This document shows positions 15,061-39,084 of a DNA stretch of 64,000 nucleotides, piece after piece; position 1 is the first letter of the stretch; every line of letters begins with the position of its first letter. The position numbers and the translations under genes are program-made. A model generated the notes under the pieces. It worked only from the letters and a program-made list of their open reading frames with translations. It was not told where the DNA came from and made no database searches. The DNA lies in the NCBI GenBank assembly GCA_019454675.1, contig JACFNV010000001.1:471-64470 (forward strand), in the 5' to 3' direction. The stretch is from Gammaproteobacteria bacterium. Lineage in GTDB: Bacteria; Pseudomonadota; Gammaproteobacteria; Steroidobacterales; GCA-2729495.

Positions 15061-15191
15061 CGCCCGCTCCAGCGCCAGGTGCTTGTAACCGCGCTGCCTG
15101 GCAGAGGAAAATATGCGTTTTGCCAGCCACCTCACGCGGTGGCATGCGCGCTGCCTCCCGAGGGGCTGCAGCGTCATACGGAGCCCGCAAC

Positions 15192-15944: not shown

Positions 15945-15978
15945 GCGGGCGCGCACCGCGCTGACAGGACTGGACCAG

Positions 15979-19406: not shown

Positions 19407-20735
19407 TCAATCGAGGGCGCGTATGCTACCAGAACCGGGCGCCCGATCGGCCGTGCCGAGCTGGCCGATGCGCGGGACCAGCCAGCTGATGAACAGCGCC
19501 GAGAGCAGCTGCGTGATGCCCACCGCCCAGAACACCGGCGCATAGGAGAAGTGCTGGCTGATCCAGCCCACGGCGGCGACGAAGGCCATGCCGCCGAAGG
19601 CCCCCACGGCACCGAAGAGCCCCCAGATGCTGGCGGCCTGGGCCGCAGGGAACAGGTCGATCGGCAGCGAAAAGAGGTTGGCGGCCTTCAGCTGGATGGC
19701 GAACATGGCCAGCCCGATCAGCGCCAGCGCCAGATAGGCCGAGTCGACCACGGCTGCCGGCAGGGTCAGCGGGACGAGCAGTGCCCCGGCCCAGATGACG
19801 GTCTTGCGGGCGCGGTCGAGCGACCAGCCCCGCATCATCAGCTGGCGGCTGGCCCAGCCACCGGCCAGGCTGCCGGCATCGGCAGCGAGGAAGGGCACCC
19901 AGACGAAGGCGGCGATCTGGACGATGTCGAAGCCGCGGGCCTGGTCGAGATAGGTGGGCAGCCAGGCGACGAAAAAATAGAAGCCGCCATCGTTGGCAAA
20001 GCGGCTGAGCACCATGCCCCACACCTCGCGGTGGCGCAGGTAGCCAAGCACGGTTCGCCAGGAGGTTGCCGCGGAGTCCGCCGACGTCGATTCGCGCCCG
20101 CCAAGGATCAGCCGCCGCTCCTCTTCGCCCAGGTGCGGATTCGCCTCCGGCAGGCTGTAGTAGCGATGCCAGAGCCACAGCCAGGCCAGGCCGATGGCAC
20201 CCGGCACCAGGAAGGCGGCATGCCAGCCACCCAGCAGGATGAGCCCGCCCAGCAACGGCGGGGCAATGACCGCACCGAGGCCCGGACCGACCGTCACGAT
20301 GCCGACCGCCAGCGATCGTTCCGCCTCGGGAAACCATTCCGCCACCGCCTTCACCGCGGCCGGGAAGTTGGTGGCCTCGGTGATGCCGAGCAGGGCGCGC
20401 AGCCCGAGGAAGCCGAGGAAGCCGCGGCCGGCCGCATGCGCCATGCCGGCGATGCTCCAGGCCAGCACCGCCCAGGAAAAGGCGCGGCGCGTGCCGAAGC
20501 GGTCGATGAGCGGGCCGACGACCAGGTGGCCCAGCGCATAGGTGAGCAGGAAGGCCGAGTTGATCAAGCCGAACTCGGTGTTGCTCAGCTCGAACTCGCG
20601 GATCAGCATCGGCCCGGCGATGGCCAGCGCCTGCCGGTCGAGGTAATTGATGGTGGTGATCAGGCACAGGAGGATGGCGATCCACCAGCGCAGCCCCCAT
20701 CCGCGGCCGGATCTGCTGGCAGGAAAGATCGACAT
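19407..20735 (-). CDS. MFS transporter, ACS family (ExuT-like anion:cation symporter)
   Basis: RW-IA-LL---TTINYLDRQ, IDRFGTR, EATNFPAAVKAVAEWFP--ER. Confidence 0.88.
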   Translation of the reverse strand: MSIFPASRSGRGWGLRWWIAILLCLITTINYLDRQALAIAGPMLIREFELSNTEFGLINSAFLLTYALGHLVVGPLIDRFGTRRAFSWAVLAWSIAGMAHAAGRGFLGFLGLRALLGITEATNFPAAVKAVAEWFPEAERSLAVGIVTVGPGLGAVIAPPLLGGLILLGGWHAAFLVPGAIGLAWLWLWHRYYSLPEANPHLGEEERRLILGGRESTSADSAATSWRTVLGYLRHREVWGMVLSRFANDGGFYFFVAWLPTYLDQARGFDIVQIAAFVWVPFLAADAGSLAGGWASRQLMMRGWSLDRARKTVIWAGALLVPLTLPAAVVDSAYLALALIGLAMFAIQLKAANLFSLPIDLFPAAQAASIWGLFGAVGAFGGMAFVAAVGWISQHFSYAPVFWAVGITQLLSALFISWLVPRIGQLGTADRAPGSGSIRALD

Positions 20736-20818
20736 GCTGGCGCCTTGATTACAGGATGACCGGCCAATTATGCTGGTCCGTCAGCCGTTTCACACAGCCG
20801 CATGCCAAAGGACCGTCC

Positions 20819-22327
20819 ATGAGCGCCGCAGCCCAGAGCCCCGCCATCTCGCAGGCGACCCGCGACTTCCTCGCCCGTCGCCACCAGTTGTTCATCGGCG
20901 GGCGCTGGGTGGAGCCTGCCAGTCCCGGCACCATCGAGGTCGTCAACCCCGCCACCGAGGAGACCATCGCCACCGTGGCCCGTGGTGGCCCGGAGGACAT
21001 CGACCGCGCGGTGGCGGCGGCACGTGCGGCGTTCAAGGGAGAATGGTCGCGCATCGGCACGCACCAGCGTTCGCGCCTGCTGTTCCGCCTCGCCGACCAG
21101 CTCGAGGCGCACCTCGACCTGGCGACCGAGCTCGAGGTGCTCGACAACGGCATGCCGCGGATGATCGCGCGGCACTCGATCGCCAAGTTCGGCTGCGACT
21201 TCCTGCGCTACTACGGCGGCTGGAGCACCAAGATCTTCGGCGAGACGATCCCGGTGCAGCCGCACGAGGCACCCAACGGCGGCTCGCTCACCTACACCCA
21301 GCGCGAGCCGGTCGGCGTGGTGGGCGCCATCACGCCCTGGAACGCGCCGCTGATCATGGCGGTACTCAAGCTCGCTCCCGCCCTGGCGGCCGGTTGCACG
21401 GTGGTGCTGAAGCCGGCCGAGCTGACGCCGCTGACCGCCCTGCTGCTGGGCGAGATCATCAGCCAGTCGGGGATCCCCGATGGCGTCGTCAACATCGTCC
21501 CCGCCTTCGGCCACGATGCCGGTGCGGCGCTGGCCGAGCACGAGGGCGTCGACAAGATCGCCTTCACCGGCTCGACCGCGGTCGGCAAAAAGATCCTCAT
21601 GGCGGCGGCGGGCAACCTCAAGCGCGTGACCCTCGAGCTGGGCGGCAAGTCGCCCTTCGTCGTGTTCCCCGATGCCGATCTCTCGCGCGTCATCCCCGGT
21701 GCCACCCGCGGCGCCTTCTTCCTGCAGGGCCAGAACTGCATGGCCAGCACGCGCCTGTTCGTCCACGACGACGTCTTCGAGCGCGTGGTGGAAGGCATTG
21801 CCGCCATGGCCAACGGCTTCCGCCTGGGCCCGGGGCTGGCTGCCGGCACCGATCTCGGCCCGCTGATCTCCGCCGACCAGCGCCGGCGGGTGATGGCCTA
21901 CATCGAGGATGGGCGCCGTTCGCAGGCCGAGCTGGTCTGTGGCGGCGAGGTTCCCGAGGGCAAGGGCTTCTTCGTCCGGCCCACGGTCTTCGCCCACACC
22001 ACCATGGACATGAAGATCGCCCGCGAGGAAATCTTCGGCCCCGTGCTGTGCATCCAGTCCTTCAACGACAGCGACCTCGAGGCGGTGGCGGCGGAGGCCA
22101 ACAAGACCGTCTACGGGCTTTCCGGCAGCGTCTGGACCCGCGACATCTCCACTGCGCACAGGATGGTCAACCTGATCGACTCGGGCCAGGTCAGCATCAA
22201 CTGCCATGCGGCGGTGGATCCGGGCATCCCCTTCGGCGGCAACCGCCAGTCGGGCTGGGGCCGCGAATTCGGCCGCGAGGGGCTCGAGGGCTATCTGAAG
22301 ACGAAGGCGACCACCGTCCTCTTCTGA
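20819..22327 (+). CDS. NAD-dependent aldehyde dehydrogenase (phenylacetaldehyde dehydrogenase-like)
   Basis: ITPWNAP, KPAELTP, FTGSTAVG, LELGGKSP, GQNC, EEIFGPV, PFGGNRQSGWGRE. Confidence 0.93.
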   Translation: MSAAAQSPAISQATRDFLARRHQLFIGGRWVEPASPGTIEVVNPATEETIATVARGGPEDIDRAVAAARAAFKGEWSRIGTHQRSRLLFRLADQLEAHLDLATELEVLDNGMPRMIARHSIAKFGCDFLRYYGGWSTKIFGETIPVQPHEAPNGGSLTYTQREPVGVVGAITPWNAPLIMAVLKLAPALAAGCTVVLKPAELTPLTALLLGEIISQSGIPDGVVNIVPAFGHDAGAALAEHEGVDKIAFTGSTAVGKKILMAAAGNLKRVTLELGGKSPFVVFPDADLSRVIPGATRGAFFLQGQNCMASTRLFVHDDVFERVVEGIAAMANGFRLGPGLAAGTDLGPLISADQRRRVMAYIEDGRRSQAELVCGGEVPEGKGFFVRPTVFAHTTMDMKIAREEIFGPVLCIQSFNDSDLEAVAAEANKTVYGLSGSVWTRDISTAHRMVNLIDSGQVSINCHAAVDPGIPFGGNRQSGWGREFGREGLEGYLKTKATTVLF

Positions 22328-22337
22328 GGCGGTATCG

Positions 22338-22366
22338 GGTGGGCCGCCAGCCGGTGGCCCACACCC
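22338..22366. terminator. Hairpin between convergent ALDH and AKR genes
   Basis: gtgggcc-N10-ggcccac inverted repeat just after the ALDH stop; no U tract. Confidence 0.45.
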
Positions 22367-22387
22367 TCCGCCAACCGCCCTGGTGCT

Positions 22388-23449
22388 CTAGTGGCGGTAG
22401 GCGCGATGCGGCATCCGCCCGCGCACCTCGCCGTACATCAATTGCTGGAAGAAACCGCTGTCGAGCAGCGATTGCGGATAGCCGGGCAATGGCGGTGCCA
22501 GCTCATCGAGCCGTGCCAGCTGCGCGGCGTCCAGCTGCAGCTCCAGGCAGCCCAGGTTTTCCGCAAGCTGCCCGCGGTTGCGGGCGCCGATGATGGGCAC
22601 CAGAACCGGTGAGGGATGCCGCTGGCGCAGCCAGGCGAGTGCCAGCTGCGCCGGGCGGCAGTCCATCTCGGCGGCCATGCGCACCAGGCCATCCGCTGCG
22701 CGCCGGTTGCGCTCGTCGAACACCCGCGCCGCCCGTGCCGGCTGCGACAGGCGTGCCCCGGCGCTGGCAGCGGGCGCCGCACCGGAAGAGAACTTTCCGC
22801 TCAGCAGGCCGCTCGCCAGCGGGCTCCACGGCGTGATGGCCATGTCCTGTGCCTCGGCCAGGGCGAGGAAATCCGCTTCGATGCTGCGCTCGACCAGGTT
22901 GTAGTGCAGCTGCATGGCGGTGAACGGCGTCCATCCACGCTCGAGGGCGATCGTGTTGGCACTGGCGATGGCCCATGCCGGCGCGTTGGAAATGCCGATG
23001 TGCAGGATCTTGCCCGCCCTCACCTGGTCATCCAGCGCCCGCATGAGTTCCGCGGGCGGGATGCGTGCATCCCAGCCATGCAGCCAGTACAGGTCGATAT
23101 AGGGCGTGCGCAGCCTGCGCAGGCTCGCCTCCAGTGCCTGGACCAGGTTCTTGCGCTGGCTGCCAGCCGCGTTCGGGTCGTCGCCGCGGGTGGAGAGGCC
23201 ATACTTGGTGGCCAGTACCAGGTGCTCGCGCTCGCTGGCCGCGAAGTCGCCGAGCATGCTTTCGCTGGTGCCCCGGTTGTAGACATTGGCGGTGTCGATG
23301 AAATTGCCCCCGGCCCCGAGGAAGGCATCGAACACCGCCTGGCACTCGGGCCTGGGCGCTCCCAGGCCCATTTCCTCGCCGAAAGTCATGGTGCCGAGGC
23401 AGAGTTCGGAAACGCGCAGCCCGCTGCGGCCCAGTGCCAGGTATTTCAT
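22388..23449 (-). CDS. Aldo/keto reductase
   Basis: LGRSGLRVSELCLGTMTFG, DTANVY, LATKY, YIDLYWLH, IG-SN, PWSPLASGLL, IIGAR. Confidence 0.93.
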   Translation of the reverse strand: MKYLALGRSGLRVSELCLGTMTFGEEMGLGAPRPECQAVFDAFLGAGGNFIDTANVYNRGTSESMLGDFAASEREHLVLATKYGLSTRGDDPNAAGSQRKNLVQALEASLRRLRTPYIDLYWLHGWDARIPPAELMRALDDQVRAGKILHIGISNAPAWAIASANTIALERGWTPFTAMQLHYNLVERSIEADFLALAEAQDMAITPWSPLASGLLSGKFSSGAAPAASAGARLSQPARAARVFDERNRRAADGLVRMAAEMDCRPAQLALAWLRQRHPSPVLVPIIGARNRGQLAENLGCLELQLDAAQLARLDELAPPLPGYPQSLLDSGFFQQLMYGEVRGRMPHRAYRH

Positions 23450-23618
23450 CTGTTCCAGGTCCTTGCTCCGTGGCTGTCGGCGCCGCCCGGCATCCCGGAA
23501 GCGGCGGCCGTCGATGGGGATGCGCAACTGTAGCAGGGCGCCAACCGTCCACCCTTGGCAGGACCGCCGGGGATGACTATGATTGTCCACCTGTTGGATT
23601 GGTTTCGTTTCAAATACA

Positions 23619-24464
23619 ATGGCATCCACACGTCCGATTCGCGCCCTGCAGCGCGGCCTTGAAGTGCTGCATGTCCTCAACCTGCAAAACGGCGCCACGG
23701 TCTCCGAGGTGGCCATCGCCATCGGCCTGCCGCGGACGACGACCTACCGCATCCTGGAGACGCTCTGCGCCGCCGGCTACGCCTATCGTGCCGTTGTCGA
23801 TGAGCGTTACCGGCTCACCATCATGGTGCGCGGCCTGAGCGATGGCTTCGACGACGAGGCCTGGGTATCGCAGATAGCGCGCCCCTACATCCATGCGCTG
23901 TGCAACGAGCTGGTATGGCCGATTGCGGTGGCCACCCTCTCCGGCTCCACCATGATGATCCGCCAGACCACCGACCATCGCAGCCCCCTTGCGGTGGAGA
24001 AGCGCGGGCCCGGCTTCAGGGTGCCGATCCTGGAATCCGCCGCGGGGCTGGCCTACCTGGCCTTCTGTGCCGGGGAGCAGCGCAAGGCGATCCTCGACCT
24101 GCTGATGAAGTCGCGCCGCGAGCAGGACCGCCCTGTCCACGGCCAGGCCAGGATCGAGGCGACGCTGAACGAGGTGCGCCTGCGCGGCTTTGCCATCAAC
24201 CGCCGGGCACGGCGTGTCGCCGACGAGATGAGCATGGCGGTGCCGGTGCTGGCCGGGGAGCGCCTGCTGGCGACGCTGGGCATCCGCTTTGCGGTGACGG
24301 CCGTCTCCGAGGCCGAGGCCATCGAACGCTTCGTGCCGCAGCTGAAGCTGGCGGCCAGCCGGATCGGCGAGGAATTCATGCAGCAGGCGGAGCAGGATAT
24401 CCGCGCTGCCGCCGGCCAGCCGCCGGTGCGTGCCACCCATTCCGGGCTGCGCGCGGCCAGGTAA
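23619..24464 (+). CDS. IclR-family transcriptional regulator (MhpR-like)
   Basis: IRALQRGLEVL, GLPRTTTYRILETL HTH, SAAGLAYLA, SMAVPV. Confidence 0.9.
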   Translation: MASTRPIRALQRGLEVLHVLNLQNGATVSEVAIAIGLPRTTTYRILETLCAAGYAYRAVVDERYRLTIMVRGLSDGFDDEAWVSQIARPYIHALCNELVWPIAVATLSGSTMMIRQTTDHRSPLAVEKRGPGFRVPILESAAGLAYLAFCAGEQRKAILDLLMKSRREQDRPVHGQARIEATLNEVRLRGFAINRRARRVADEMSMAVPVLAGERLLATLGIRFAVTAVSEAEAIERFVPQLKLAASRIGEEFMQQAEQDIRAAAGQPPVRATHSGLRAAR

Positions 24465-24527
24465 GCCGGACCCAGGGGAAAGCCGGATGGGCGTCCCGGA
24501 GGACACCCATCCGGCCAGCATCGGACA

Positions 24528-26477
24528 TCAGGCAGCCTTGCCCTTCTTGCTGCCTGCCTTCTGGCGCTTCCCGGCCGCAGCCGTCCTGGCGGCATTTGCC
24601 TGGATGGCCTGGATGAAGCGCGGAAATTCCGGCTGCTTGGGTGCCGGCAGGCCGGTTTCCTTCTGGCAGCGCTTCTTCAGCTCGGGGATCTTGTCGCCGA
24701 AGTTGAAGATGCCGGTCTTGCCACGCTTCTTCGCCAGCCTGGCACGCAGGGCCTTGGTGGCCTTTTCGTCCAGGCCGCCGTTCTTCCCGAGCACCACGCC
24801 GTAATGGGCTTTCGCGCCCTCCGCCGTGACCAGTCCGGCGTCGACATCGAAGACCACCGCTGCCGGGTCGCGCGCGTAGGGGTCGCCCCAGCCACCGCCG
24901 CCCCAGGTATCGAAGTTGAGCAGGTCACCCTCCTTCACCTGGATGCGGTCGCACTTCGAGGGGAGGATCTCGCGGCTGCCGTTCTTGCGCACCAGCTCCT
25001 TGCGGCTGCGCTGGCCGGGTGCGCCACCGTTGACGCCCCAGGGATAGGTCAGCCAGCGGTCGTCGTGGATGGAGATCTCGCCGTCCTCGAGGAAGCGGTA
25101 GCCGACGCGCAGCGCGTTGCCGCCGCGGTGCTTGCCGGCGCCGCCGCTGTCCGGGAGCGTCTCGTAGGTCTCGATGCGCAGCGGGAAGTAGGCCTCGACG
25201 AACTCGTTGGGCACGTTGGTGAAGTTCGGCCACATGGAGTGGCCGTCGGGTCCGTCGCCGACCGGCCGGCCCGGCACGCCGCCGAAGCCGATCTGGAACA
25301 GCTGGAACCACTCGCCGTTCTTGTCGTAGCCCGAATACATGAGGTGCGGGCTGTCGGAAAAGCCGGCCGCGTTGAGGAAGTCCGGGTTGCTCTGGCCGAA
25401 GAGGCCGCTGAGCACGTCGAACAGTCGCCCGAGCGCATGGGTACGGCATGACAGGGCCGCGGGCTCCACCGGCTTGAGCAGCGTACCCCGCGGGATGCGC
25501 ACCTCCATCAGGTCGTAGAAGCCGTCGTTGAACATGATCTTCGGGTCGAAGACCATGATCATCCACACGCCGGCGAACATCTTGAACATTTCCTCGTTGA
25601 GGAAGAAGTTCACCGAGCCGATCGACTGCGGATCGGTGCCCTCGAAGTCGAAGACGATCTTCGAGCCCTCGCGCCACATGGTGCAGCGCATCTTGTAGGG
25701 GCCCATGCCCATGCCATCGTCGCAGAGGTAGTCCTCGAAGGACTGCTTCCTGGTGGACACGGTGGTCTTGATCAGCTGCGCCATGGCGCGCCGGTTGCGG
25801 TCGAGCAACTCCTCCAGCGCGGAGTAGTAGACGTCGTCGCCGAAGCGGTTCGCCATCTCGATGACGCGCTTCTCGGCGGTGCGGATGGAGGCGATGATGG
25901 CGTTGAAGTCGCTGCGGTTCCAGTGCGGCAGGCGGCAGTTGTGCAGGATCAGGTTGAGGATGTCCTCCTGCAGCACGTCCTTCCTGTAGATCTTGGTGGG
26001 GGGGACGCGGATGCCCTCCTCGTAGATCTGGCGCGCATCGGTGGGCAGGCTGCCCGGCACCTTGCCGCCGACGTCCGTCATGTGGCCGAACATGGCCGCA
26101 TAGGCCGCCAGGCGCCCGTCCTTGAAGATCGGGCGCAGCAGCAGCCAGTCGTTGATGTGGCTCACGGCGCCGTTGCAGGAATACGGGTCGGTGATGAGGA
26201 AGATGTCGCCTTCCTCGATGGTGCCCTCGTAGGCTTCCTTGAAGCCGTAGATGAAGCTGCCGAACTGGCCGACGACCATCTTGCCGTCGACGTTGGCGAT
26301 CATCGGGAAGGCATCGCCCTGCTCGCGGATGCCCGGCGACATGGCGGTGCGGAACAGCACGGCATCCATTTCGTGGCGGGCATTGAGCATCGCATTTTCA
26401 ATGATGTCCAAGGTGACCGGATCGACGGCAACCCGCTCGAAGGCCTTGGGACTGGTTTCGACAATCTTGGCTGGCAT
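24528..26477 (-). CDS. Hydantoinase B / 5-oxoprolinase-family subunit
   Basis: [62 protein letters not shown]. Confidence 0.92.
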   Translation of the reverse strand: MPAKIVETSPKAFERVAVDPVTLDIIENAMLNARHEMDAVLFRTAMSPGIREQGDAFPMIANVDGKMVVGQFGSFIYGFKEAYEGTIEEGDIFLITDPYSCNGAVSHINDWLLLRPIFKDGRLAAYAAMFGHMTDVGGKVPGSLPTDARQIYEEGIRVPPTKIYRKDVLQEDILNLILHNCRLPHWNRSDFNAIIASIRTAEKRVIEMANRFGDDVYYSALEELLDRNRRAMAQLIKTTVSTRKQSFEDYLCDDGMGMGPYKMRCTMWREGSKIVFDFEGTDPQSIGSVNFFLNEEMFKMFAGVWMIMVFDPKIMFNDGFYDLMEVRIPRGTLLKPVEPAALSCRTHALGRLFDVLSGLFGQSNPDFLNAAGFSDSPHLMYSGYDKNGEWFQLFQIGFGGVPGRPVGDGPDGHSMWPNFTNVPNEFVEAYFPLRIETYETLPDSGGAGKHRGGNALRVGYRFLEDGEISIHDDRWLTYPWGVNGGAPGQRSRKELVRKNGSREILPSKCDRIQVKEGDLLNFDTWGGGGWGDPYARDPAAVVFDVDAGLVTAEGAKAHYGVVLGKNGGLDEKATKALRARLAKKRGKTGIFNFGDKIPELKKRCQKETGLPAPKQPEFPRFIQAIQANAARTAAAGKRQKAGSKKGKAA

Positions 26478-26504
26478 CTGTCTGTGCTCCGTAGTGGCCC
26501 GCGC

Positions 26505-28559
26505 TTATTCCGGGGTGATCACGATGTTGCCGAACTCATCCACGCGACCGACGTGGTCGGGCAGGATCACGGTGGTGGTGTCCATCTGCAGTATCACTGC
26601 CGGTCCACGCACCACGTTGCCCGCCAGCAGCCTGCTGCGATCGTAGAGCCTGGCCTTGCGGTCCTTGCCGTCGACGAACATCAGATGCTCGCCGAGCAGT
26701 GCCGCCGAGGGATCGCTGCCGCCCTTGTCGAGGCTGGTGGCGCGCACCGCAGCCGGCTTGCCCTGGGCCACCGCGCGCAGGTTGACGATTTCCTTCTCTT
26801 CCTGCAGCGCAAAGGTGAAGAGCTGCGTATGCACCTCGTCGAACTGCCTGCCGATGACATCCAGCCCCTGCTTTTCCAGCTCGTCGAGGCTGAAGTCGAC
26901 GGTCAGCAGGAAGCCCTGGCCGCGGTAGCGGACATCGGCCTGGAAGGTATGCTTCTGTTCGTTGCGCGCGATGCCGTCGCGGTCGAGGCTGCGTGCCGCA
27001 CTGTTGATGAGCTGGTTGAGGATCTTCGCCACCTCGCGCGCGTTGGTCTCGCTGAAGCCGCGGATGAAGGTGCGCGCGAACTCGTCGCGCACGCTGGTCG
27101 TGGCATCGCCCACCGCGCACAGCACGCCGGGGCTGCCGGGGATGATCACCGGCCAGGCTTGCGACAGCTTGCCCAGTGCATTGGCGTGCAGGGGGCCCGC
27201 GCCGCCGAAGCCCATCAGCGCGAAGTCGCGCGGGTCGTAGCCCTTTTCCACCGACACCAGGCGCAGCGCGCCGTACATGTTCTCGTTGACGATGTCGATG
27301 ATGCCGGCGGCTGCCTCCTTCACGGAGAGCTTGAGCGCCTTGGCCACCTTGCCCACCGCCGCCTCGGCAAGGTCCCTGCGGATGACCATGTCGCCGCCGA
27401 GGCGCACCTCGCCGCTCGGCAGGAAGCCCAGCACCACGTTGGCGTCCGTGACCGTGGGCTCGTCGCCGCCCTTGTCGTAGGCCGCCGGGCCCGGGTCCGC
27501 GCCCGCGCTCTGCGGGCCGACGCGCAGCGCGCCGGTGATCTCCGGCACGTAGGCGATCGAGCCGCCGCCGGCGCCGACCGTGCGCACGTCGATCGAGGAG
27601 GCACGGACGACGACCTCGTGGACGCTGGTCTCGCGGCGCAGCTGCGCCTGGCCATCCTGGATCAGCGCGACGTCGGTCGAAGTGCCACCCATGTCGAAGG
27701 TGAGGATGTTCTTGTAGCCGGCCTGCTTGCCGGTCCACATCGCCCCCGAGACGCCACCGGCCGGGCCGCTCATCAGCATGTTGACCGGGTAGTCCTCGGC
27801 CGCCTTGGCCGATGCCAGGCCACCGTCCGAGCGCAGCACCCGCAGCTGCACCCGCTTCATTTCCTTTTTCAGCTCGCGCTGCAGGTTGCGCACGTACTTG
27901 GCCACCTTCGGTGCCACGTAGGCATTGGCGACGGTGGTGGCCGTGCGTTCGTACTCCTGCATCTCCGGCACGATCACCGAAGACAGGGAAACCGGGATGT
28001 CCGGCAGCACCTCGGCGGCGATCGCCGCGATCTCCTGCTCGTGCGCCGGGTTGGCGAAGGAGTTGATCAGCGAGACGGTGAGCGACTCGATCCCCTTCTT
28101 GCGCAGCGCCTTGAGGTCCTTCGTCAGCTTCGCCCTGTTGAGCTTGGTGACGACCTCGCCCCTGGCGCCGATGCGCTCATCGGCCTCGATGGTGAGCGAC
28201 AGCGGTGCCAGCGGCGGTGGCTTGTTGTAGATCACCCAGCCACCGAGCCCGCCGGGCACGAAGGAGCGCGCGATCTGCAGTACCTGCCGGTAGCCCTTGG
28301 TGGTGACCAGGCCGACCCTGGCGCCGGTATGCGTGAGGATGGTGTTGGTGGCCACCGTGGTGCCGTGCATCACGTGGGTGATCTCGTTCGGATCGATGCC
28401 GGCGTTCTGGCAGATGCGCCCGATGCCGTTGAGCACGCCTATGGAGGGATCGCTGGGTGTGCTTGGCACCTTGGCCGAGTGGACGTCGCCGGTCTGCCCG
28501 TTGACGAGGATCAGATCGGTGAAGGTTCCACCGACGTCGACTCCAAGACGGTAACTCAT
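26505..28559 (-). CDS. Hydantoinase A / 5-oxoprolinase-family ATP-binding subunit
   Basis: RLGVDVGGTFTD, HGTTVATN, EYER--TT-ANAYV, SGPAGG, DMGGTSTDV, GAGGGSI, GPQSAGA-PGP. Confidence 0.93.
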   Translation of the reverse strand: MSYRLGVDVGGTFTDLILVNGQTGDVHSAKVPSTPSDPSIGVLNGIGRICQNAGIDPNEITHVMHGTTVATNTILTHTGARVGLVTTKGYRQVLQIARSFVPGGLGGWVIYNKPPPLAPLSLTIEADERIGARGEVVTKLNRAKLTKDLKALRKKGIESLTVSLINSFANPAHEQEIAAIAAEVLPDIPVSLSSVIVPEMQEYERTATTVANAYVAPKVAKYVRNLQRELKKEMKRVQLRVLRSDGGLASAKAAEDYPVNMLMSGPAGGVSGAMWTGKQAGYKNILTFDMGGTSTDVALIQDGQAQLRRETSVHEVVVRASSIDVRTVGAGGGSIAYVPEITGALRVGPQSAGADPGPAAYDKGGDEPTVTDANVVLGFLPSGEVRLGGDMVIRRDLAEAAVGKVAKALKLSVKEAAAGIIDIVNENMYGALRLVSVEKGYDPRDFALMGFGGAGPLHANALGKLSQAWPVIIPGSPGVLCAVGDATTSVRDEFARTFIRGFSETNAREVAKILNQLINSAARSLDRDGIARNEQKHTFQADVRYRGQGFLLTVDFSLDELEKQGLDVIGRQFDEVHTQLFTFALQEEKEIVNLRAVAQGKPAAVRATSLDKGGSDPSAALLGEHLMFVDGKDRKARLYDRSRLLAGNVVRGPAVILQMDTTTVILPDHVGRVDEFGNIVITPE

Positions 28560-28712
28560 ACACACACCTCGATGTTTCCAGGATTCTTCCGTTTGCCCCG
28601 CCATCGGCAGGTCACCGCCAGCCGGTGCCCTTTCCGGGGCGGCACGACCTTGGCCATGGCTGGGTCGATCTGCTGTTGCTGGTACCTTGCCCCGCCCGCT
28701 CGCGGACCGTGC

Positions 28713-29663
28713 TCAGCCCGCCGCCCGGTGCTGCTCGATCACCTTGGGGAAAATGCCCGCCTTGGGCAACATGGCCGGCACCCCCCTGCCAAGCTGCTGC
28801 TGCAGCCAGTTGCTGGTCTCGATCACCTGCTCCAGCGACACGCCGGTGTGCACGCCGGAACGGTCCAGCATGTACAGCAGGTCGTCGGTCGCGATGTTGC
28901 CGGTGGCCGCCGGTGCAAAGGGGCAGCCGCCGATGCCGCCGATGCTGGCATCCAGCGAGTCCACGCCGGCATCCAGCGCCGCCTGGGCGTTGGCGATGCC
29001 GGTGTTGCGGGTGTTGTGGAAATGGGCGCGGATCGGCACGCCGGGCGCACGTTCGCGGATGGCGTGGATCATCTCGCCCACCTGGGAGGGAACGCCCACG
29101 CCGATGCTGTCGGCGATGCCGAGCTCGACGGGCTCGCCGGCGAGCACCTGGTCCACCAGGTCGAGGACGCGCCGCAGCGGCACCTCGCCCTCGAAGGGGC
29201 AGCCGAAGGCAGAGGAAATCATGACGTTCGCACGCATGCCGGCAGCGCGCGCCTCCTGCGCGATCGCCAGCCATGCCTTGACCGATTCGGCGGTCGGCAC
29301 GCCCTGGTTGCGCTGGTTGTAGGTGTCGCTGGCCACCACCGCCATGCCGATCTCGCCGAGGCCCGCGTCGCGTGCACGCTCGAAGCCCTTGCGGTTGAGC
29401 ACGAGGCCGATGTAACGGACATCGTCGCGCCGGGGCAGGCCGGCGATGACCGCCTCCGCATCTGCCATCTGCGGGACGCGCTTCGGGTGGACGAAACTGG
29501 TGACCTCCAGGGCACGGATCCCCGCGTCGATGGCGCGACGGATGAACTCGATCTTGGCCTCGGTCGGGAGGATCTCCGGCTCGCTCTGCAGCCCATCACG
29601 CGGACCGACCTCGATGATGGAAAGCTTGCGTTGTGGCTGGGTCATGGCTGTCTTGCGGGCCAT
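28713..29663 (-). CDS. HMG-CoA lyase-like (DRE-TIM) acyl-CoA C-C lyase
   Basis: EVGPRDGLQ, FGCPFEG, HFHNT, GG-GGCPFAP-ATGN-ATDD; alternative start at 29645. Confidence 0.9.
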   Translation of the reverse strand: MARKTAMTQPQRKLSIIEVGPRDGLQSEPEILPTEAKIEFIRRAIDAGIRALEVTSFVHPKRVPQMADAEAVIAGLPRRDDVRYIGLVLNRKGFERARDAGLGEIGMAVVASDTYNQRNQGVPTAESVKAWLAIAQEARAAGMRANVMISSAFGCPFEGEVPLRRVLDLVDQVLAGEPVELGIADSIGVGVPSQVGEMIHAIRERAPGVPIRAHFHNTRNTGIANAQAALDAGVDSLDASIGGIGGCPFAPAATGNIATDDLLYMLDRSGVHTGVSLEQVIETSNWLQQQLGRGVPAMLPKAGIFPKVIEQHRAAG

Positions 29664-29881
29664 TTAAAATAGGGTATTGTTATACACGGCGTCGGGCGGC
29701 ACAACAAGCAAAGCATGCAATCCGGGTGCCCCCTTTCCTGCAGCCGGCACCCAGTGTCACGGCAATCCGGACCGGCCCGGTCCGGCATGATAGGGAAGAT
29801 GATTGGCGTTGTCCTGCCCGCGACAGTCCTGCGCGGCAGCGACGACATGACGGATACAAACAGCTCTGGAAGGAATTGCAC

Positions 29882-31096
29882 ATGAGCACGGGAACCGGGA
29901 AGACGCCAGGCCCACTGGCCGGACTGCGGGTAATCGAGATGGGCACGCTGCTGGCCGGCCCGTTCTGCGGGCAGCTGCTGGGCGACTTCGGCGCCGAAAT
30001 CATCAAGATCGAACCTCCCGGGCAGGGCGACCCGATGCGCGACTGGGGCCGCGAGAAGGCGCACGGCATGTCGCTGTGGTGGCCGGTGATCGCGCGCAAC
30101 AAGAAATCCGTGACGCTGAACCTGCGTGAAGCCGAGGGCCAGGCGATCGCCCGCTCGCTGATCGGCCAGGCCGATTTCCTGCTGGAGAACTTCCGGCCCG
30201 GCACGATGGAAAAATGGGGCCTCGGCTACGAGCAGCTGCGCCAGTCGCACCCCGGCCTGATCATGATCCGCGTGTCCGGCTACGGGCAGACCGGGCCCTA
30301 CGCCAAGCGTGCCGGCTTCGGCGCCGTCGGCGAGGCCATGGGCGGCCTGCGCTATGTCTGCGGCGACCCGTCCACGCCGCCGAGCCGCATGGGCATCAGC
30401 ATCGGCGACTCGCTGGCAGCCACCTTCGCCTGCATCGGCGCGCTGGCCGCGCTGCATCACCGCGAAAAGACCGGCCAGGGGCAGATCGTCGACTCGGCGA
30501 TCTACGAGGCCGTGCTCAACATGATGGAGTCGCTCATCACCGAGTACGACAAGGCCGGCTACATCCGCGAGCGCACCGGCGCCATCCTGCCGAACGTCGC
30601 GCCGTCCAATGTCTACCCCACCAGCGACAAGCAGTTCATCCTGATCGCGGCCAACCAGGACACCGTCTTCAGGCGGCTGGCGGAGACCATGGGCAAGCCT
30701 GAGCTTGCCACCGATCCGCGCTATGCCAGCCACTCCTCGCGCGGTGCGCACCAGAAGGAGCTCGACGACCTGATTGCCGAGTGGACCCGCACCATCACCT
30801 CCGACCAGCTGGAGAAGCTGATGGAGGAGTCCGGCATTCCCTCCGGCAGGATCTATCGCACGCCGGAGATGCTCGAGGATGCGCACTTCAAGGCGCGCCA
30901 GGCGATCATCAGCGTGGTGCACCCGCGCTTCGGCGAGCTGAAGATGCAGAACGTGGCGCCCAAGCTGAGCTCGACGCCGGGCACCATCCGCAGCCCGGCT
31001 CCCGACCTGGGCGAGCACAACCAGGAGGTGTACCGCAAGCTGCTCGGCTTCTCCGAAGAGCGGATGGCCGAGCTGCAGAACGCCGGGATCATCTGA
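29882..31096 (+). CDS. Family III CoA-transferase (CaiB/BaiF)
   Basis: GPLAGLRVIE, AGPFCGQLLGDFGAE-IKIE, RNKKSVTLNL, ENFRPG, SGYGQTGP, GDSLA (catalytic Asp). Confidence 0.93.
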   Translation: MSTGTGKTPGPLAGLRVIEMGTLLAGPFCGQLLGDFGAEIIKIEPPGQGDPMRDWGREKAHGMSLWWPVIARNKKSVTLNLREAEGQAIARSLIGQADFLLENFRPGTMEKWGLGYEQLRQSHPGLIMIRVSGYGQTGPYAKRAGFGAVGEAMGGLRYVCGDPSTPPSRMGISIGDSLAATFACIGALAALHHREKTGQGQIVDSAIYEAVLNMMESLITEYDKAGYIRERTGAILPNVAPSNVYPTSDKQFILIAANQDTVFRRLAETMGKPELATDPRYASHSSRGAHQKELDDLIAEWTRTITSDQLEKLMEESGIPSGRIYRTPEMLEDAHFKARQAIISVVHPRFGELKMQNVAPKLSSTPGTIRSPAPDLGEHNQEVYRKLLGFSEERMAELQNAGII

Positions 31097-31951
31097 GTGA
31101 CCGCCGCCGCAGCAGCCGGTCCGCTGATCGGGCCGATCACCGGCGTCACCATCTGCACGCCCGTGCTCGAGGCCAGCGAGGCCGCCTATGTGCAGCATCT
31201 GCGCTACCGCGTCACCCGGCGCGGGACCATCAGCGCCGCACAGGCCGCACTCTGGCAACGGCCCGCCGTTGCCGGGGCGCGCTATGTGGCGCTCAGCCCC
31301 GCGGCCGCAGATGATTTCGAGTTCCGCCTGATCGAAAGCCGCCCGCCGGCGGGCAGCTACCGGGCCTTTGCGCACCATGGCTGGAACGCCGCCGAACTCA
31401 TCGTCCAGGATGTGGATGCGCTGGCTGCCGAACTGGCCGACAGCCCTTTCCAGATCATCGGGCCACCCCAGGACCTGTCCTTCGCCGAGGACATCCGCGC
31501 CATGCAGCTGCGCGGGCCGGCCGGGGAGATCATCTACCTGACCCAGTTCAAGCGGGAGCTGCCGGAGCTGCCTGCCCCGCCTGCCCGCTGCGCCATCGAC
31601 CGGGTCTTCATCATGATCGTTACCGGGCCTTCGCTCGATGGCCTGCTGGACTTCTACAGCGAGCGTTTTGCCATCCCCCGACCGCAGCCCATGCAGTCGC
31701 GGGTGAAGGTCATGTCGGAGGTTTTCGGCCTTTCGCCCGAGGAGCGCTACCGGATTGCGGCGGTGCCCGTCCGCGGACGCTGCTACATCGAGGCCGACCA
31801 GATGCCGGCGGCCGCGCGCCCTCCCGAAGCCTCGCCGGATGCGCTGCCGCCGGGCATCGCCATCGTCAGCTTTCGCCAGCAGGAGGGCGGCGAGCCCCGC
31901 TGCCTCACCGGAGCCGCAGGGGAAATCATCGAACTCACGCCGGCCGGATAG
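31097..31951 (+). CDS. VOC/glyoxalase-like hypothetical protein
   Basis: GTG immediately after the caiB stop; GW-AAELIVQDVD and GPAGEIIYL suggest beta-alpha-beta-beta-beta repeats. Confidence 0.6.
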   Translation: MTAAAAAGPLIGPITGVTICTPVLEASEAAYVQHLRYRVTRRGTISAAQAALWQRPAVAGARYVALSPAAADDFEFRLIESRPPAGSYRAFAHHGWNAAELIVQDVDALAAELADSPFQIIGPPQDLSFAEDIRAMQLRGPAGEIIYLTQFKRELPELPAPPARCAIDRVFIMIVTGPSLDGLLDFYSERFAIPRPQPMQSRVKVMSEVFGLSPEERYRIAAVPVRGRCYIEADQMPAAARPPEASPDALPPGIAIVSFRQQEGGEPRCLTGAAGEIIELTPAG

Positions 31952-32014
31952 CCGCAGGCAGACCCGGCGACGGGCACAGAAGCCGGAAAATCCGGCATAT
32001 CAAAAACCGCTGAA

Positions 32015-32027
32015 TATCAGGTAATTG
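32015..32027 (+). promoter_or_regulatory. IHF consensus match (TATCAGgtaaTTG)
   Basis: Exact match to WATCARNNNNTTR within an AT-rich intergenic patch. Confidence 0.4.
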
Positions 32028-32091
32028 AGCATGAAAACTGATGTTTTTCATGATGGCATGATATGCCTGCGCGGGGGAGGAACACCACGGT

Positions 32092-32412
32092 TCAGTCCCT
32101 GTTGTCGGCAACCTGAAGCTCCAGCCCGTCGAGGCTGTCGGTGATCTCGATCTGGCAGGTGAGGCGGCTGTTCGGCCGGCGGTCTCGCGCCGAATCGAGC
32201 ATGGCATCCTCCATGTCGCTCAGCGGAGGCAATCGTTCCAGCCATTCGTCGGCAATGTAGGCATGACAGGTGGCGCAGGCACAGGCCCCGCCACATTCGG
32301 CGACGATTCCCTCGATGTCATGGTCAAGGGCGGCTTCCATGACCGTGGTTCCGGGGGCAACCTCGACTTCGCGTCGCAGGCCCTCGATGTCGTGATAGAT
32401 GACTCGTGGCAT
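32092..32412 (-). CDS. fdx: 2Fe-2S ferredoxin, adrenodoxin/putidaredoxin type
   Basis: ECGGACACATCH and SRLTCQI; start MPRVIY. Confidence 0.93.
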   Translation of the reverse strand: MPRVIYHDIEGLRREVEVAPGTTVMEAALDHDIEGIVAECGGACACATCHAYIADEWLERLPPLSDMEDAMLDSARDRRPNSRLTCQIEITDSLDGLELQVADNRD

Positions 32413-32470
32413 GTTTCGGTTCTCGTACGTCGCTGCAGACCAAGCGTACCCGGCCCTGCGGGCGGGTCCA

Positions 32471-32502
32471 AAGAAAAAGGCCGCCACCAGCCGGTGGCGG
32501 CC
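32471..32502 (-). terminator. Rho-independent terminator after the TPR gene
   Basis: ggccgccacc-4 nt-ggtggcggcc 10-bp stem followed on the minus strand by TTTTTCTT. Confidence 0.8.
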
Positions 32503-32552
32503 CGGGAATGTGAAGAAGCTCCTCGTGCCTCCGGGGTATCGGCCATCCGGCT

Positions 32553-33797
32553 CTAGGCGGCACCGGCACCGGTCTTGGCGACGATCGTCCACAGGCGCGC
32601 CAGGTCGACCATCTGCGGATCTTCCTTGACTCCTCCGAAGGCCTTGAGGGCATCCGCCTTCTTGCCGAGCTTGAGATTGGCTATGCCCAGCATGATGCGG
32701 GTCTGGTCGGGGTCGCGGATCTCCCCCTTCTCGAGGCCCTTGTTGAGTGCGACTGCAGCCTTCTCGTACTGGCCGAAGCTGGAGTAGGCCATGCCGAGCG
32801 CCACATCGCCCTGCCCGGTCTTGATCTTGGCCGCGTCCTTTTCGGTTTGCGGCAGGGCATTGAGGTCCTTGGTGGCAGCGATCCGGGCATCTTCCAGTCG
32901 ACGCTGGTAGCGATCGGCACGCGTCTTGTCGATCGAGTCCAGAACCTTGGCCGAGTAACCCGCCTCGAGGACGCTGCGCGCCTCGCCCGGCAGGCCCGCC
33001 TCGAGCAGCAATTCGGCCATCTCGAGATACTGGTCGGCCGAACGCAGCGTGCCGACCTGCTGCGCGAGACGATAGGTGTTGAGCAGGACCCGGTCGCTGC
33101 TGCGCTGGTTGAGACGGGTCACCAGCAGGTCATGCCAGTACTCGGGCTTCGGGTTGATCTTCACCAGCTTCTCGAGGGTATTCGCGGCAGCATCCGTGTC
33201 GCCCAGCTTGGTCTGCGCACTGCGGATGAGCTGGAGCCAGTTCTCGTCGGGCGTCTTGCCTGCCCGCTCGGTGCTGGCGACCGCCTCCTGCATGATGCTG
33301 ATGGCTTCCTTGTTGTGGTTCTGGATGTAATGGGCCTGGCCCACCAATACCTTGATATCCACGTCCTGGCCACCCGCCTTCATCCAGCGCTCACCGAATT
33401 CGATGACCTTCGGATAGTTCTTCGCCGCGGTGTTGAGCTGCGTCAGCACCTTCAGCCTCTCGGTGACCTGGTCGGCAGGCGTCTTCCCCGAAGCGAGGTT
33501 GGCCTCGTAGAGGCGGGCCACATCGGGGTATTTCCGCTGCTGGAGGTAGATGTAGGCCTTGAACTCGTTGATCTGGTACTGGTCGAAGGCGGTCTTGCCG
33601 CTGATGCCATCCGCCTCGGTCAGCTTGGCCAGCGCCTGATCCCACTGCTTCTTCTGCAGTGCTTCCTGAGCCGCCTTCATCGGCTTGGCAACCTTGGCGC
33701 TGATCTTCTCCTGGGCGACGGACTGGCCGGCGACCAGCAGGCTGCTGACTGCTACCAGAATGGCCGCAACAGCACGAAATGATGCTTTTGCTCGCAT
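32553..33797 (-). CDS. Exported tetratricopeptide-repeat protein
   Basis: Signal-peptide-like N-terminus (..AGQSVA|QE) and repeated helical A-L-A-Y TPR-like units. Confidence 0.8.
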   Translation of the reverse strand: MRAKASFRAVAAILVAVSSLLVAGQSVAQEKISAKVAKPMKAAQEALQKKQWDQALAKLTEADGISGKTAFDQYQINEFKAYIYLQQRKYPDVARLYEANLASGKTPADQVTERLKVLTQLNTAAKNYPKVIEFGERWMKAGGQDVDIKVLVGQAHYIQNHNKEAISIMQEAVASTERAGKTPDENWLQLIRSAQTKLGDTDAAANTLEKLVKINPKPEYWHDLLVTRLNQRSSDRVLLNTYRLAQQVGTLRSADQYLEMAELLLEAGLPGEARSVLEAGYSAKVLDSIDKTRADRYQRRLEDARIAATKDLNALPQTEKDAAKIKTGQGDVALGMAYSSFGQYEKAAVALNKGLEKGEIRDPDQTRIMLGIANLKLGKKADALKAFGGVKEDPQMVDLARLWTIVAKTGAGAA

Positions 33798-36563: not shown

Positions 36564-36718
36564 GCGCCGGGCCCGGCGGCTTGCGACCCAGCGCCGGTGC
36601 CGATGCCGCCCGGCGGCCTTTAGACCATGGCTTTCACGGTGCTGCGCTGCCGGCAGGCGCCAACGCTGCGGCTGCGGCCTGCCAGTGCCGTCACGAGTGC
36701 TTTCCAAGGATCAGAAAT

Positions 36719-37657
36719 ATGCCCATGAAGACAAGCGAGTGGATCTGGCAGAACGGCAGCTTCATGCCCTGGGCCGAGGCCCGGGTGCATGTCATGACCC
36801 ACGCCCTGCACTACGGCTCCTCGGTTTTCGAGGGGATCCGCGTCTACGCCACCCACCGCGGCCCGGTCGTCTTCCGCCTCCAGGCGCATACCCGCCGGCT
36901 GCTGGAGTCGGCGCGGATCTACCGCATCGAGGTGCCGTGGTCCGCCGCGCAGATCGATGCCGCCTGCAAGGAAGTCGTGCTGCGCAACGGCCTGGTCCGC
37001 GGTGCCTACATCCGCCCGATCATCTTCCGCTGTTACGGCGAAGTTCGCCTGGCGCCGCCGCCGGACCATCCGGTGGAGACGGCCATCGCCGCCTGGGAAT
37101 GGGGAGCCTACCTGGGTGCCGAGGCGCTCGAGCAGGGCGTGGATGTCTGCGTTTCCTCGTGGCAGCGTGCCGCTCCCAACACCCTGCCCGCCATGGCCAA
37201 GGCGGGCGGCAATTACCTCTCCAGCACGCTGATCAGCCTCGAGGCCAAGCAACGCGGCTTTGCCGAGGGCATTGCGCTGTCGACCGACGGCACCGTGAGC
37301 GAGGGTGCCGGCGAGAACATCTTCCTGGTCCGCGACGGCGTGCTCTACACCCCCCCCGCCACCGCCTCGATCCTCACCGGCATCACCCGCGACAGCATCA
37401 TGGTGCTGGCACGCCAGGCCGGCATCAGCGTCGTCGAGCAGGCGATCCCGCGCGAGATGCTCTACCTCGCCGACGAGATCTTCCTGACCGGCACCGCGGC
37501 GGAAATCACCCCGGTGCGCTCGGTGGACCGCATCAACGTGGGAGCCGGGCGGCGCGGGCCGCTGACCCGGCAGCTGCAGGAAAGCTTTTTTGGACTGTTC
37601 AATGGCAAGACCAGTGACCAGTGGGGCTGGCTTGAACCCGTGGAGAATGCCCGATGA
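36719..37657 (+). CDS. ilvE: Branched-chain amino acid aminotransferase
   Basis: [52 protein letters not shown]. Confidence 0.96.
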
Positions 37658-39063: not shown

Positions 39064-39084
39064 CCCCGACACCAGGCAGCAACC

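Follow-up and report, generated by a model that had tools for sequence, protein, structure and literature searches.

A candidate cyclic-amide catabolic gene cluster conserved among wastewater Gammaproteobacteria

The 64-kb window analysed here is contig C126 of G000, a gammaproteobacterial genome of 2.38 Mb that is 96% complete. It carries a six-gene set in which HydAB, a putative adenosine triphosphate (ATP)-dependent ring-opening enzyme of the hydantoinase/oxoprolinase/lactamase type, is joined to a family III coenzyme A (CoA)-transferase, a lyase of the 3-hydroxy-3-methylglutaryl-CoA (HMG-CoA) lyase type, a 284-aa protein with a predicted VOC fold and an IclR-family regulator. The arrangement of these genes is conserved far more than by chance, and its novelty is that known enzyme families stand in an undescribed, widely conserved combination. 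At a little short of even confidence, we read the set as a dedicated catabolic module under IclR control, in which the ATP-driven opening of a cyclic amide would be followed by succinyl-CoA-dependent activation and by cleavage of the HMG-CoA-lyase type. The substrate would probably be a small cyclic amide (a lactam, an imide or a hydantoin-like ring) carrying or yielding carboxylate groups.

The six-gene set and its conservation

The window has 69% G+C, and real genes were told from the many spurious open reading frames (ORFs) by family scans (Pfam and NCBIfam) and by third-position G+C. An IclR gene is followed on the opposite strand by hydB, hydA and the lyase gene, from which the genes of the CoA-transferase (caiB) and of the VOC-fold protein diverge:

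23619-24464, plus strand: IclR-family regulator (PF09339, E 2e-11; PF01614, E 1.8e-8)
24528-26477, minus strand: HydB, putative metal-containing subunit of the ATP-dependent hydantoinase/oxoprolinase/lactamase type (PF02538, E 3.4e-144)
26505-28559, minus strand: HydA, ASKHA-type ATP-binding subunit (PF05378, PF01968 and PF19278)
28713-29663, minus strand: HMG-CoA-lyase-type lyase, first gene of the lyase-hydA-hydB unit (PF00682, E 7e-41)
29674-29707, no strand: operator-like inverted repeat, GTATTGTTATACA ... GCACAACAA, just upstream of the lyase start codon
29882-31096, plus strand: family III (CaiB/BaiF) CoA-transferase, putatively of the dicarboxylate type (PF02515, E 4.7e-128, profile positions 1-366 of 366)
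31097-31951, plus strand: 284-aa protein with a predicted two-domain VOC fold, starting one base past the stop codon of the CoA-transferase

Only 27 bp separate hydA from hydB and 0 bp caiB from the VOC gene, a gap of 63 bp lies between the converging iclR and hydB, and the divergent intergenic region from the lyase to the CoA-transferase measures 218 bp. The HydA ORF is open to 28604, with a likely start MSYRLGVDVGGT at 28559, and the CoA-transferase starts with the ATG at 29882, preceded by a GGAAGGAA motif. The original prediction had named these genes at these coordinates; all of them are present and the Pfam and NCBIfam scans agree with it, the 284-aa VOC protein being recognised by its fold.

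Searches of 24 genomes of the same bacterial family found an orthologue of the VOC protein in every one, and 20 kb around it were taken from 20 of them, those without a fetched locus being G002, G004, G016 and G021. CaiB and the VOC protein are adjacent in all 20 loci, the lyase, HydA and HydB follow in each of the 17 whose contig reaches that far, and IclR is found in 14 of the 16 that extend past HydB, with G008 and G024 as the two loci that do not have it. G008, a relative with a complete chromosome, keeps CaiB (81% identity), the VOC protein (62%) and an aldehyde dehydrogenase (ALDH, 76%) at full length, and its lyase, HydA and HydB persist only as frame-broken fragments of 36-83% identity (L020:11929-17030). 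The joint decay of these three genes fits a shared function of one unit.

For a wider view, 185,579 species genomes were scanned and gave at least 574 loci with HydB relatives, of which the best 80 (65-87% identity) were kept and their gene content established by tblastn and by clustering of all their ORFs. The VOC protein, the lyase, HydA and HydB occur together in 25 of these best 80 loci (tblastn), in other Gammaproteobacteria. A CaiB orthologue of 75-93% identity is adjacent in 16 of the 25, and in nine, of the Woeseiaceae type, the VOC gene is directly divergent from the lyase. The neighbourhood on which the original prediction was built thus recurs in other genomes, in the family and beyond it.

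It is very unlikely that these genes are conserved neighbours without a common pathway, kept together by vertical inheritance in one gammaproteobacterial order. The flanking string is also syntenic (ALDH, transporter, redoxin, MFS and ETF on one side, ferredoxin, TPR and ExbD on the other), so that synteny alone is weak evidence here, and the compared genomes are kin rather than independent samples. However, Halieaceae, Marinobacter, Alloalcanivorax, Vreelandella and Alphaproteobacteria also have HydAB together with a family III CoA-transferase and an HMG-CoA-lyase-like (HMGL-like) lyase, there in other arrangements and as non-orthologous copies (27-44% identity), which argues for a repeated association beyond vertical synteny. 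The operon-like spacing of hydA-hydB and caiB-VOC also speaks for a common role.

HydAB and the amidase-type sister clusters

The translation of HydA contains VDVGGTFTD, DMGGTSTD and GADPGP, corresponding to the phosphate-1 (DxGGTxTD), phosphate-2 (DxGGT) and adenosine (GxxPGP) motifs. Such ASKHA motifs of the A subunit, together with the metal-ligand residues of the B subunit, are described for this enzyme family in PMC8453981. In HydB, the Asp-His-Asp-His positions match those of CapB (6yra_B), the D of 'EQGD', 'SHIND' and 'FGHMTD' being aligned by phmmer, and the protein ends in a Lys/Ala-rich C-terminal tail. Among NCBIfam models, HydA scores best with CapA (NF050156, 546.6 bits), ahead of ApcC (303.9) and ApcA (202), and HydB with CapB (NF050157, 212.7 bits), ahead of ApcD (119.2), both subunits remaining well under the 1000-bit cut-offs of these caprolactamase equivalogs. 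The solved relatives of HydB rank in the same way, with N-methylhydantoinase 7hk5 (231.7 bits, E 1.5e-67, ~560 residues) and CapB 6yra_B (200.5) ahead of the delta subunit of acetophenone carboxylase (Apc, 114.4) and of acetone carboxylase alpha (5m45 and 5svb, 82.6 and 79.8).

Two residues point in the same direction. According to PMC8453981, the first metal ligand is Asp in lactamases and acetophenone carboxylase, as it is in HydB, whereas acetone carboxylase has Glu; and just past the second phosphate motif CapA has Asp, as does HydA, whereas Apc alpha-prime has Lys. No small ORF of the acetone-carboxylase gamma type was found within or beside the lyase-hydA-hydB unit, to which that search was confined. 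Because motifs, score ranking, metal-ligand residue and missing gamma-type ORF agree, HydAB is placed by its sequence on the hydrolase (lactamase/hydantoinase) side of the family rather than on the ketone-carboxylase side, in no characterised orthologue group. The original assignment to the ATP-dependent lactamase A/B type is in this way upheld by motifs and by scores above those of the carboxylases.

HydB is the sole Hydantoinase_B gene found in G000. PxpA is the common bacterial 5-oxoprolinase subunit; of the 41 genomes searched (G000 and relatives), one has LamB_YcsF/PxpA, and in the other 40, G000 included, it was not found. Many relatives, G000 not among them, have a fused HydA-HydB-like gene of 1208-1291 aa that is just 26-30% identical to the HydAB of the cluster and that we take to resemble the fused, eukaryote-type form of 5-oxoprolinase. 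Since most other genera of the family carry this separate gene in addition to the cluster, the HydAB of the cluster would form a distinct orthologue group. In the genus, G008 has a fused gene of ~1240 aa, 27% identical to HydB, and none was found in the 13 other relatives or in G000.

Many of the best 80 HydB loci follow another layout, in which a hydrolase of the isochorismatase family takes part: one such family occurs in 42 of the 80, usually directly downstream of hydB, and a second one in 26. Among the 74 HydB rows that were typed, 40 are amidase-type and 23 VOC-type, the other 11 lying on contigs too short to tell. HydB of the amidase-type loci is 65-78% identical to that of the window, and its partners are other family III CoA-transferases (27-33% identical to the window's) and HMGL-like lyases (37-44%), accompanied, depending on the lineage, by TonB receptors, alpha/beta hydrolases, TauD, HpaB-like and luciferase-like oxygenases, nitroreductases, and GntR or sigma-54 regulators. 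In the HydB tree (quick maximum likelihood, SH-aLRT support, midpoint root) the leaves of both types are mixed: the VOC-type rows make up three groups and L078, in a polytomy with a Halieaceae amidase-type clade, and the other amidase-type clades fall outside. L078 (3655-14860) is the sole locus of the best 80 with both a VOC protein and an amidase; a CaiB orthologue (76%), an isochorismatase and a VOC gene (42%) lie on one strand, a lyase (71%), HydA and HydB on the other, and GntR and IclR regulators downstream.

The coupling of HydB orthologues to isochorismatase-family amidohydrolases points to a nitrogen-containing substrate for the HydAB clade. We infer that the substrate class of HydAB is shared by both layouts and that the lineage of the window lost or relocated the amidase. 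Judged by gene content, the window is an amidase-less, VOC-bearing variant of a wider, HydAB-centred orphan system that usually carries an isochorismatase-type amidase. The only PF00857 (isochorismatase) gene of G000, on contig C17, is 47.5% identical to that of L078 and sits between an FAD oxidoreductase and a polysaccharide-deacetylase-like gene; it was considered as a linked member of the pathway and set aside, its context giving no support beyond homology.

Several amidase-type loci have features of their own. Those of Luminiphilus sp. nBUS_07 (L070) and of a Parvibaculales metagenome-assembled genome (MAG; L047) hold a set reminiscent of the Rut pyrimidine pathway, with a luciferase-like monooxygenase, RutB-like isochorismatases, an alpha/beta hydrolase whose best NCBIfam match is RutD and a nitroreductase, and they also hold TauD, an HpaB-like oxygenase and a gene of the Asp/Glu-racemase family. 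In Marinobacter, Alloalcanivorax and Vreelandella (L105, L102 and L111), a module of BNR/Ycf48-like, MMPL/RND, DUF1302 and DUF1329 genes is inserted between CoA-transferase/lyase and HydAB, followed by the amidase, LeuC/LeuD-like genes and a PrpR-type sigma-54 activator, all on one strand. These LeuCD-like genes were dropped as evidence for a hydratase step: their scores exceed the LeuC equivalog cut-off, and leucine biosynthesis may be their ordinary role. One further amidase-type cluster (L055) lies on a contig assigned to a Nitrosopumilus MAG; as its HydB falls among those of Lysobacterales MAGs in the tree, it probably reflects wrong binning and not an archaeal copy.

CoA-transferase, lyase, VOC protein and the proposed route

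The best NCBIfam match of the CoA-transferase is succinate-glutarate CoA-transferase (NF052585, 276 bits against a cut-off of 750), followed by formyl-CoA transferase and succinyl-CoA:mesaconate CoA-transferase. The protein stays under the cut-off for all seven equivalog models, the types tested being succinate-glutarate, formyl-CoA, mesaconate, oxalate and carnitine, and its PDB matches include human succinate-hydroxymethylglutarate CoA-transferase (9br7, E 6e-62). By family resemblance we assign it to the dicarboxylate (glutarate/HMG/mesaconate/oxalate) type.

The lyase gives a full-length TIM-barrel match to NF004283 over residues 12-297 (304 bits against a cut-off of 246) and matches the HMG-CoA lyases of the PDB with E values from 6e-71 to 4e-54 (1ydo, 5.9e-71; human HMGCL 2cw6, 1.3e-64). 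It is 74-91% identical in related loci of the family. Its translation holds the strings GPRDGLQ, HFHNTRN, GGIGGCPFA and TGN, which may correspond to the catalytic and metal positions (an Arg-Asp pair, HxH, the glycine-loop Cys and an Asn). The same model also accepts a second lyase of G000 (282 bits) and lyases of the sister clusters (320 and 333 bits), so its score does not fix the substrate. In family terms, the CoA-transferase and the HMG-CoA-lyase-like gene of the original prediction were confirmed by PF02515, NF004283 and the PDB matches. Elsewhere in G000, contig C40 carries another divergent pair, a lyase (L031:9066-10025, minus strand; 38% identical) and a family III CoA-transferase (10046-11188, plus strand; 33%), next to a porin and a diacylglycerol kinase at the contig end.

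A methylcrotonyl-CoA-carboxylase-type gene was not found in G000 with a PF01039 query. The sole biotin-type carboxyltransferase found there, a 510-aa mmdA/PccB-like protein on contig C65 (L116:1-3992), sits between a biotin carboxylase and methylmalonyl-CoA mutase. With no gene of the methylcrotonyl-CoA-carboxylase type found by this query in a genome of this completeness, there is no sign of a canonical leucine pathway that could supply HMG-CoA, and the reading of the lyase as part of that pathway was set aside.

The 284-aa protein has no Pfam or NCBIfam match even at E<=1, PF00903 included, and by sequence only chance-level matches in the PDB. Its AlphaFold2 model, built on 33 aligned relatives, has a mean pLDDT of 95.7 and resembles PcpA (4huz), 3oaj, 1zsw and maize glyoxalase I (6bnn) with VIA Z 20.3-20.4 over 229-239 residues; Foldseek returns the maize glyoxalase I entry 6bnx (E 1.6e-11). 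Its Atlas neighbours are named VOC, some relatives carry the JGI label 'catechol 2,3-dioxygenase-like lactoylglutathione lyase family enzyme', and a precomputed PF00903 match is present in 3 of 120 relatives among the matches listed. Since sequence models gave nothing, the identity comes from the fold model and the Atlas names, and on these the 284-aa protein is modelled as a two-domain VOC protein with paired beta-alpha-beta-beta-beta modules. The earlier VOC call, which Pfam and NCBIfam did not reproduce, is in this manner borne out by the model, the fold searches and the Atlas names.

Ring-cleaving dioxygenases of the VOC superfamily (PcpA or extradiol type) are defined by a 2-His-1-carboxylate iron site, PcpA being a 2,6-dichlorohydroquinone dioxygenase. 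In the 33 aligned relatives no His is invariant or at least 90% conserved, which makes a classical site of this kind unlikely in the protein of the window; the conserved acids are E100, E144, D168, E232 and D234. Three VOC paralogues of G000 (34-37% identity) lie in unrelated contexts, beside LysR, TetR, TonB receptor and MFS genes, and gave no functional lead.

From the observed gene identities, family motifs, conservation and linkage, we infer each chemical step of the route, the order of the steps and the target of the regulator. Using ATP, HydA would phosphorylate the ring in its iminol or enol form, which would then be hydrolysed at the metal site of HydB. The acid product, probably dicarboxylic, would receive CoA from succinyl-CoA, directly or after a step by the VOC protein, which would act on a pathway intermediate. 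The HMG-CoA-lyase-type enzyme would then split a 3-hydroxyacyl-CoA into acetyl-CoA and an oxo acid or a ketone. The role of the amidase might fall to the unlinked C17 isochorismatase homologue, or might not be needed. Of the sequence of lactam opening, CoA activation and C-C cleavage in the original prediction, four elements find support: the genes co-occur, HydAB falls on the lactamase side, the transferase is of the dicarboxylate type and the lyase scores in the HMG-CoA-lyase family. The sequence falls short in that the cluster is without an amidase or an aminotransferase.

Several points weigh against such a catabolic module. The cluster holds no amidase, aminotransferase or deaminase, leaving the nitrogen of a lactam or an imide unaccounted for. 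HydAB is about one third identical to any characterised enzyme and under all equivalog cut-offs, and the VOC protein has no invariant His, so that the usual dioxygenase site is absent. CoA transfer by this gene would not be a fixed part of the core, since the search of the nine Woeseia-type loci showed no CoA-transferase within 10 kb. Lastly, HydAB could simply be the 5-oxoprolinase of the cell, because it is the sole member of its family in G000, where no PxpA was found.

Spelled out, this last alternative, which we consider unlikely, makes HydAB a housekeeping 5-oxoprolinase in metabolite repair, with the CoA-transferase and the lyase (and the VOC protein) separately using a free dicarboxylate, for example turning 3-hydroxy-3-methylglutarate into acetoacetate and acetyl-CoA. 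It would suit the scarcity of PxpA among the relatives and the finding of a fused oxoprolinase-like gene, within the genus, in the decayed-cluster genome alone, as well as the resemblance of the transferase to the human succinate-hydroxymethylglutarate enzyme and the passing of the HMG-CoA-lyase subfamily cut-off by the lyase. Yet in every locus the lyase comes first in one closely packed unit with hydA-hydB, and it decays with them in G008; most other genera of the family hold both the cluster and the separate fused gene, and the close orthologues of HydB are coupled to amidases, for which 5-oxoproline has no need.

We regard it as highly improbable that HydAB acts after the lyase as an ATP-dependent ketone carboxylase, a 3-hydroxy-3-methylacyl acid being split into acetyl-CoA and a ketone such as acetone, which would be carboxylated to a 3-oxo acid, for example in a route for leucine or hydroxy-methylbutyrate that avoids the biotin enzyme. 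Acetone and acetophenone carboxylases do belong to the same family as HydAB, the lyase, HydAB and the CoA-transferase would all receive roles without any removal of nitrogen, no methylcrotonyl-CoA-carboxylase-type gene was found in G000, and ETF genes and a class IV aminotransferase lie in the wider window. The much lower scores of HydAB against carboxylases than against lactamases and hydantoinases argue the other way, as do the Asp in place of the acetone-carboxylase Glu at the first metal ligand, the Asp in place of the Apc alpha-prime Lys after phosphate-2, the lack of a gamma-type small subunit ORF in the unit and the amidases of the sister clusters. In addition, the VOC protein, without a His-containing iron site, is a poor fit for the oxygenase that such a route would want.

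A more specific form of the catabolic module is quite unlikely in our estimate, namely that the core of VOC protein, lyase, HydA and HydB is a self-sufficient route. An abundant natural nitrogen heterocycle (for example a substituted glutaconimide, a maleimide or a pyrimidine-like ring) would be opened with ATP, the VOC protein would take the place of the amidase of the sister clusters by acting as a C-N lyase or isomerase, and a 3-hydroxy-3-methylglutarate-like acid would lead to HMG-CoA. If true, this VOC chemistry would be new to the superfamily, and a nitrogen-ring pathway would end in HMG-CoA lyase in bacteria for which no carboxylase gene of the leucine pathway was found.

Known systems, regulation and meaning

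No published pathway matching the gene combination was found in targeted full-text searches, whose listings were judged by title or abstract (~1.7 million PMC articles, subscription literature and bioRxiv supplements lay outside their coverage), in agreement with the original statement that no named pathway has it. The closest parallels each share a part of the set. CapAB of Pseudomonas jessenii, as described in PMC8453981, is likewise a two-subunit ATP-dependent ring-opening hydrolase with ASKHA motifs and an Asp-His-Asp-His tetrad. Among NCBIfam models, HydA matches CapA best and HydB matches CapB, but the vicinal Cys-Cys of CapB aligns with Met-Trp in HydB and both scores stay far from the cut-offs. 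Moreover, the caprolactam route goes on by transamination and beta-oxidation and is not known to use a family III CoA-transferase and an HMG-CoA-lyase-type enzyme. In creatinine breakdown, N-methylhydantoinase is followed by N-carbamoylsarcosine amidase, a member of the isochorismatase family. This order recalls the sister clusters, with their isochorismatase-family amidohydrolase directly after hydB, and N-methylhydantoinase 7hk5 is the best solved relative of HydB. That relation is distant, however; the window cluster has no amidase, and no known step of the creatinine branch calls for a VOC protein, a CoA-transferase or a lyase of the HMG-CoA type.

In its logic, the anaerobic indoleacetate (iaa) pathway of Aromatoleum aromaticum is a precedent, as a CoA-transferase dependent on succinyl-CoA acts there after a hydantoinase-like hydrolase; this is a likeness of description and not of sequence: PMC8453981 lists IaaCE as a hydantoinase-like hydrolase, and PMC8360864 describes IaaL as a phenylsuccinyl-CoA transferase using succinyl-CoA. 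This pathway differs in that a mutase and a decarboxylating acyl-CoA dehydrogenase lead on to benzoyl-CoA, with no HMGL-type lyase and no VOC protein. With HMG-CoA lyase and succinate-hydroxymethylglutarate CoA-transferase (SUGCT), the window would share the activation of a hydroxy-dicarboxylate by a family III CoA-transferase and the release of acetyl-CoA by an HMGL-family lyase, but its pair is joined to ATP-dependent HydAB and a VOC protein, and its transferase is under every equivalog cut-off. Succinyl-CoA:(R)-citramalate CoA-transferase and (R)-citramalyl-CoA lyase of Chloroflexus are a similar activation-cleavage pair. The amidase-type clusters share the HydAB clade and the recurring partners, family III CoA-transferase and HMGL-like lyase; they differ in often having TonB receptors, hydratases or oxygenases, where the window has the VOC protein, IclR and a lyase of the HMG-CoA-lyase subfamily that is 37-44% identical to theirs.

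The IclR protein has the domain make-up of its family, an N-terminal helix-turn-helix domain (PF09339) and a C-terminal ligand domain (PF01614), and its best NCBIfam match, NF007341/PRK09834, reaches 205 bits, under the cut-off of 269. Upstream of the lyase start, a stretch formed by GTATTGTTATACA, ~13 variable bases and G(T/C)ACAAC makes an imperfect inverted repeat. When 17 such intergenic regions, taken from different genomes, were aligned, at least 80% of them agreed in its conserved columns. Nowhere else in the window does the 13-mer occur, the one other match having 3 mismatches where 0.61 would be expected by chance. The adjacent IclR protein is the likely repressor of the divergent promoter and would act at the putative operator at 29674-29707. 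The operator half-site was not found upstream of iclR or of the aldo-keto reductase (AKR), ALDH or MFS genes.

The three genes last named lie on the left flank of the cluster, where the original prediction had noted an AKR, an ALDH and an anion MFS next door, and they are found as follows:

22388-23404, minus strand: aldo-keto reductase, neighbour (PF00248, E 1e-69)
20756-22327, plus strand: aldehyde dehydrogenase, neighbour (PF00171, E 2e-166), the true start being probably later in the ORF
19407-20735, minus strand: MFS transporter of the anion:cation symporter (ACS) type, neighbour (PF07690, E 1e-52)

The MFS protein scores 280 bits with TIGR00893, under its cut-off of 395, and the closest NCBIfam models of the ALDH, StyD and betaine-aldehyde dehydrogenase, are both under cut-off as well. 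Beside IclR, the AKR is variably present among relatives, and AKR and/or ALDH occur in most loci, not in all. The ALDH is retained near the cluster in both layouts, within a longer conserved string (ALDH, transporter, redoxin, MFS, ETF) whose synteny survives a different arrangement of the cluster. Next to the ALDH, the Woeseia-type loci have a TRAP DctQM pair, and further along they have an MFS belonging to a different family. Because this string persists in other layouts and the operator-like motif does not precede them, AKR, ALDH and MFS look like conserved chromosomal neighbours rather than proven cluster members. ETF beta and alpha are at 15033-16923, on the left side of the window. The right flank consists of ferredoxin, a TPR protein and ExbD/ExbB/TonB, and beyond them, at a distance of 5-9 kb from the cluster, leuC, leuD and leuB stand with an aminotransferase of class IV (branched-chain type; 36581-40721).

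Near-identical DNA occurs in activated-sludge and wastewater runs of several studies. The whole locus (window 22300-32700) is covered by contigs of four libraries labelled metatranscriptomic (X9, X12, X17 and X19, from three studies), where one 13-kb contig spans it entirely and the strain differs from the window at many third-codon positions. These libraries also hold contigs of 31-130 kb, which means that genomic DNA is present, so the coverage of the locus is no evidence of transcription, operon structure or induction.

Few substrates are on record for ATP-dependent ring openers of the HydAB type: 5-oxoproline, N-methylhydantoin, caprolactam/valerolactam and an indoleacetate intermediate. 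One HydAB clade is conserved here across a whole family of wastewater Gammaproteobacteria, with rearranged forms in Woeseiaceae, Halieaceae, Marinobacter, Alloalcanivorax and others, and of all forms of the system the variant of the window is the smallest, its six genes including a single regulator with a recognisable putative operator. Identification of its substrate would add a new catabolic pathway for a probably common environmental nitrogen compound and would give a function to a large VOC family that sequence models do not recognise. HydAB itself could supply a new, mild biocatalyst for the opening of lactams or imides.

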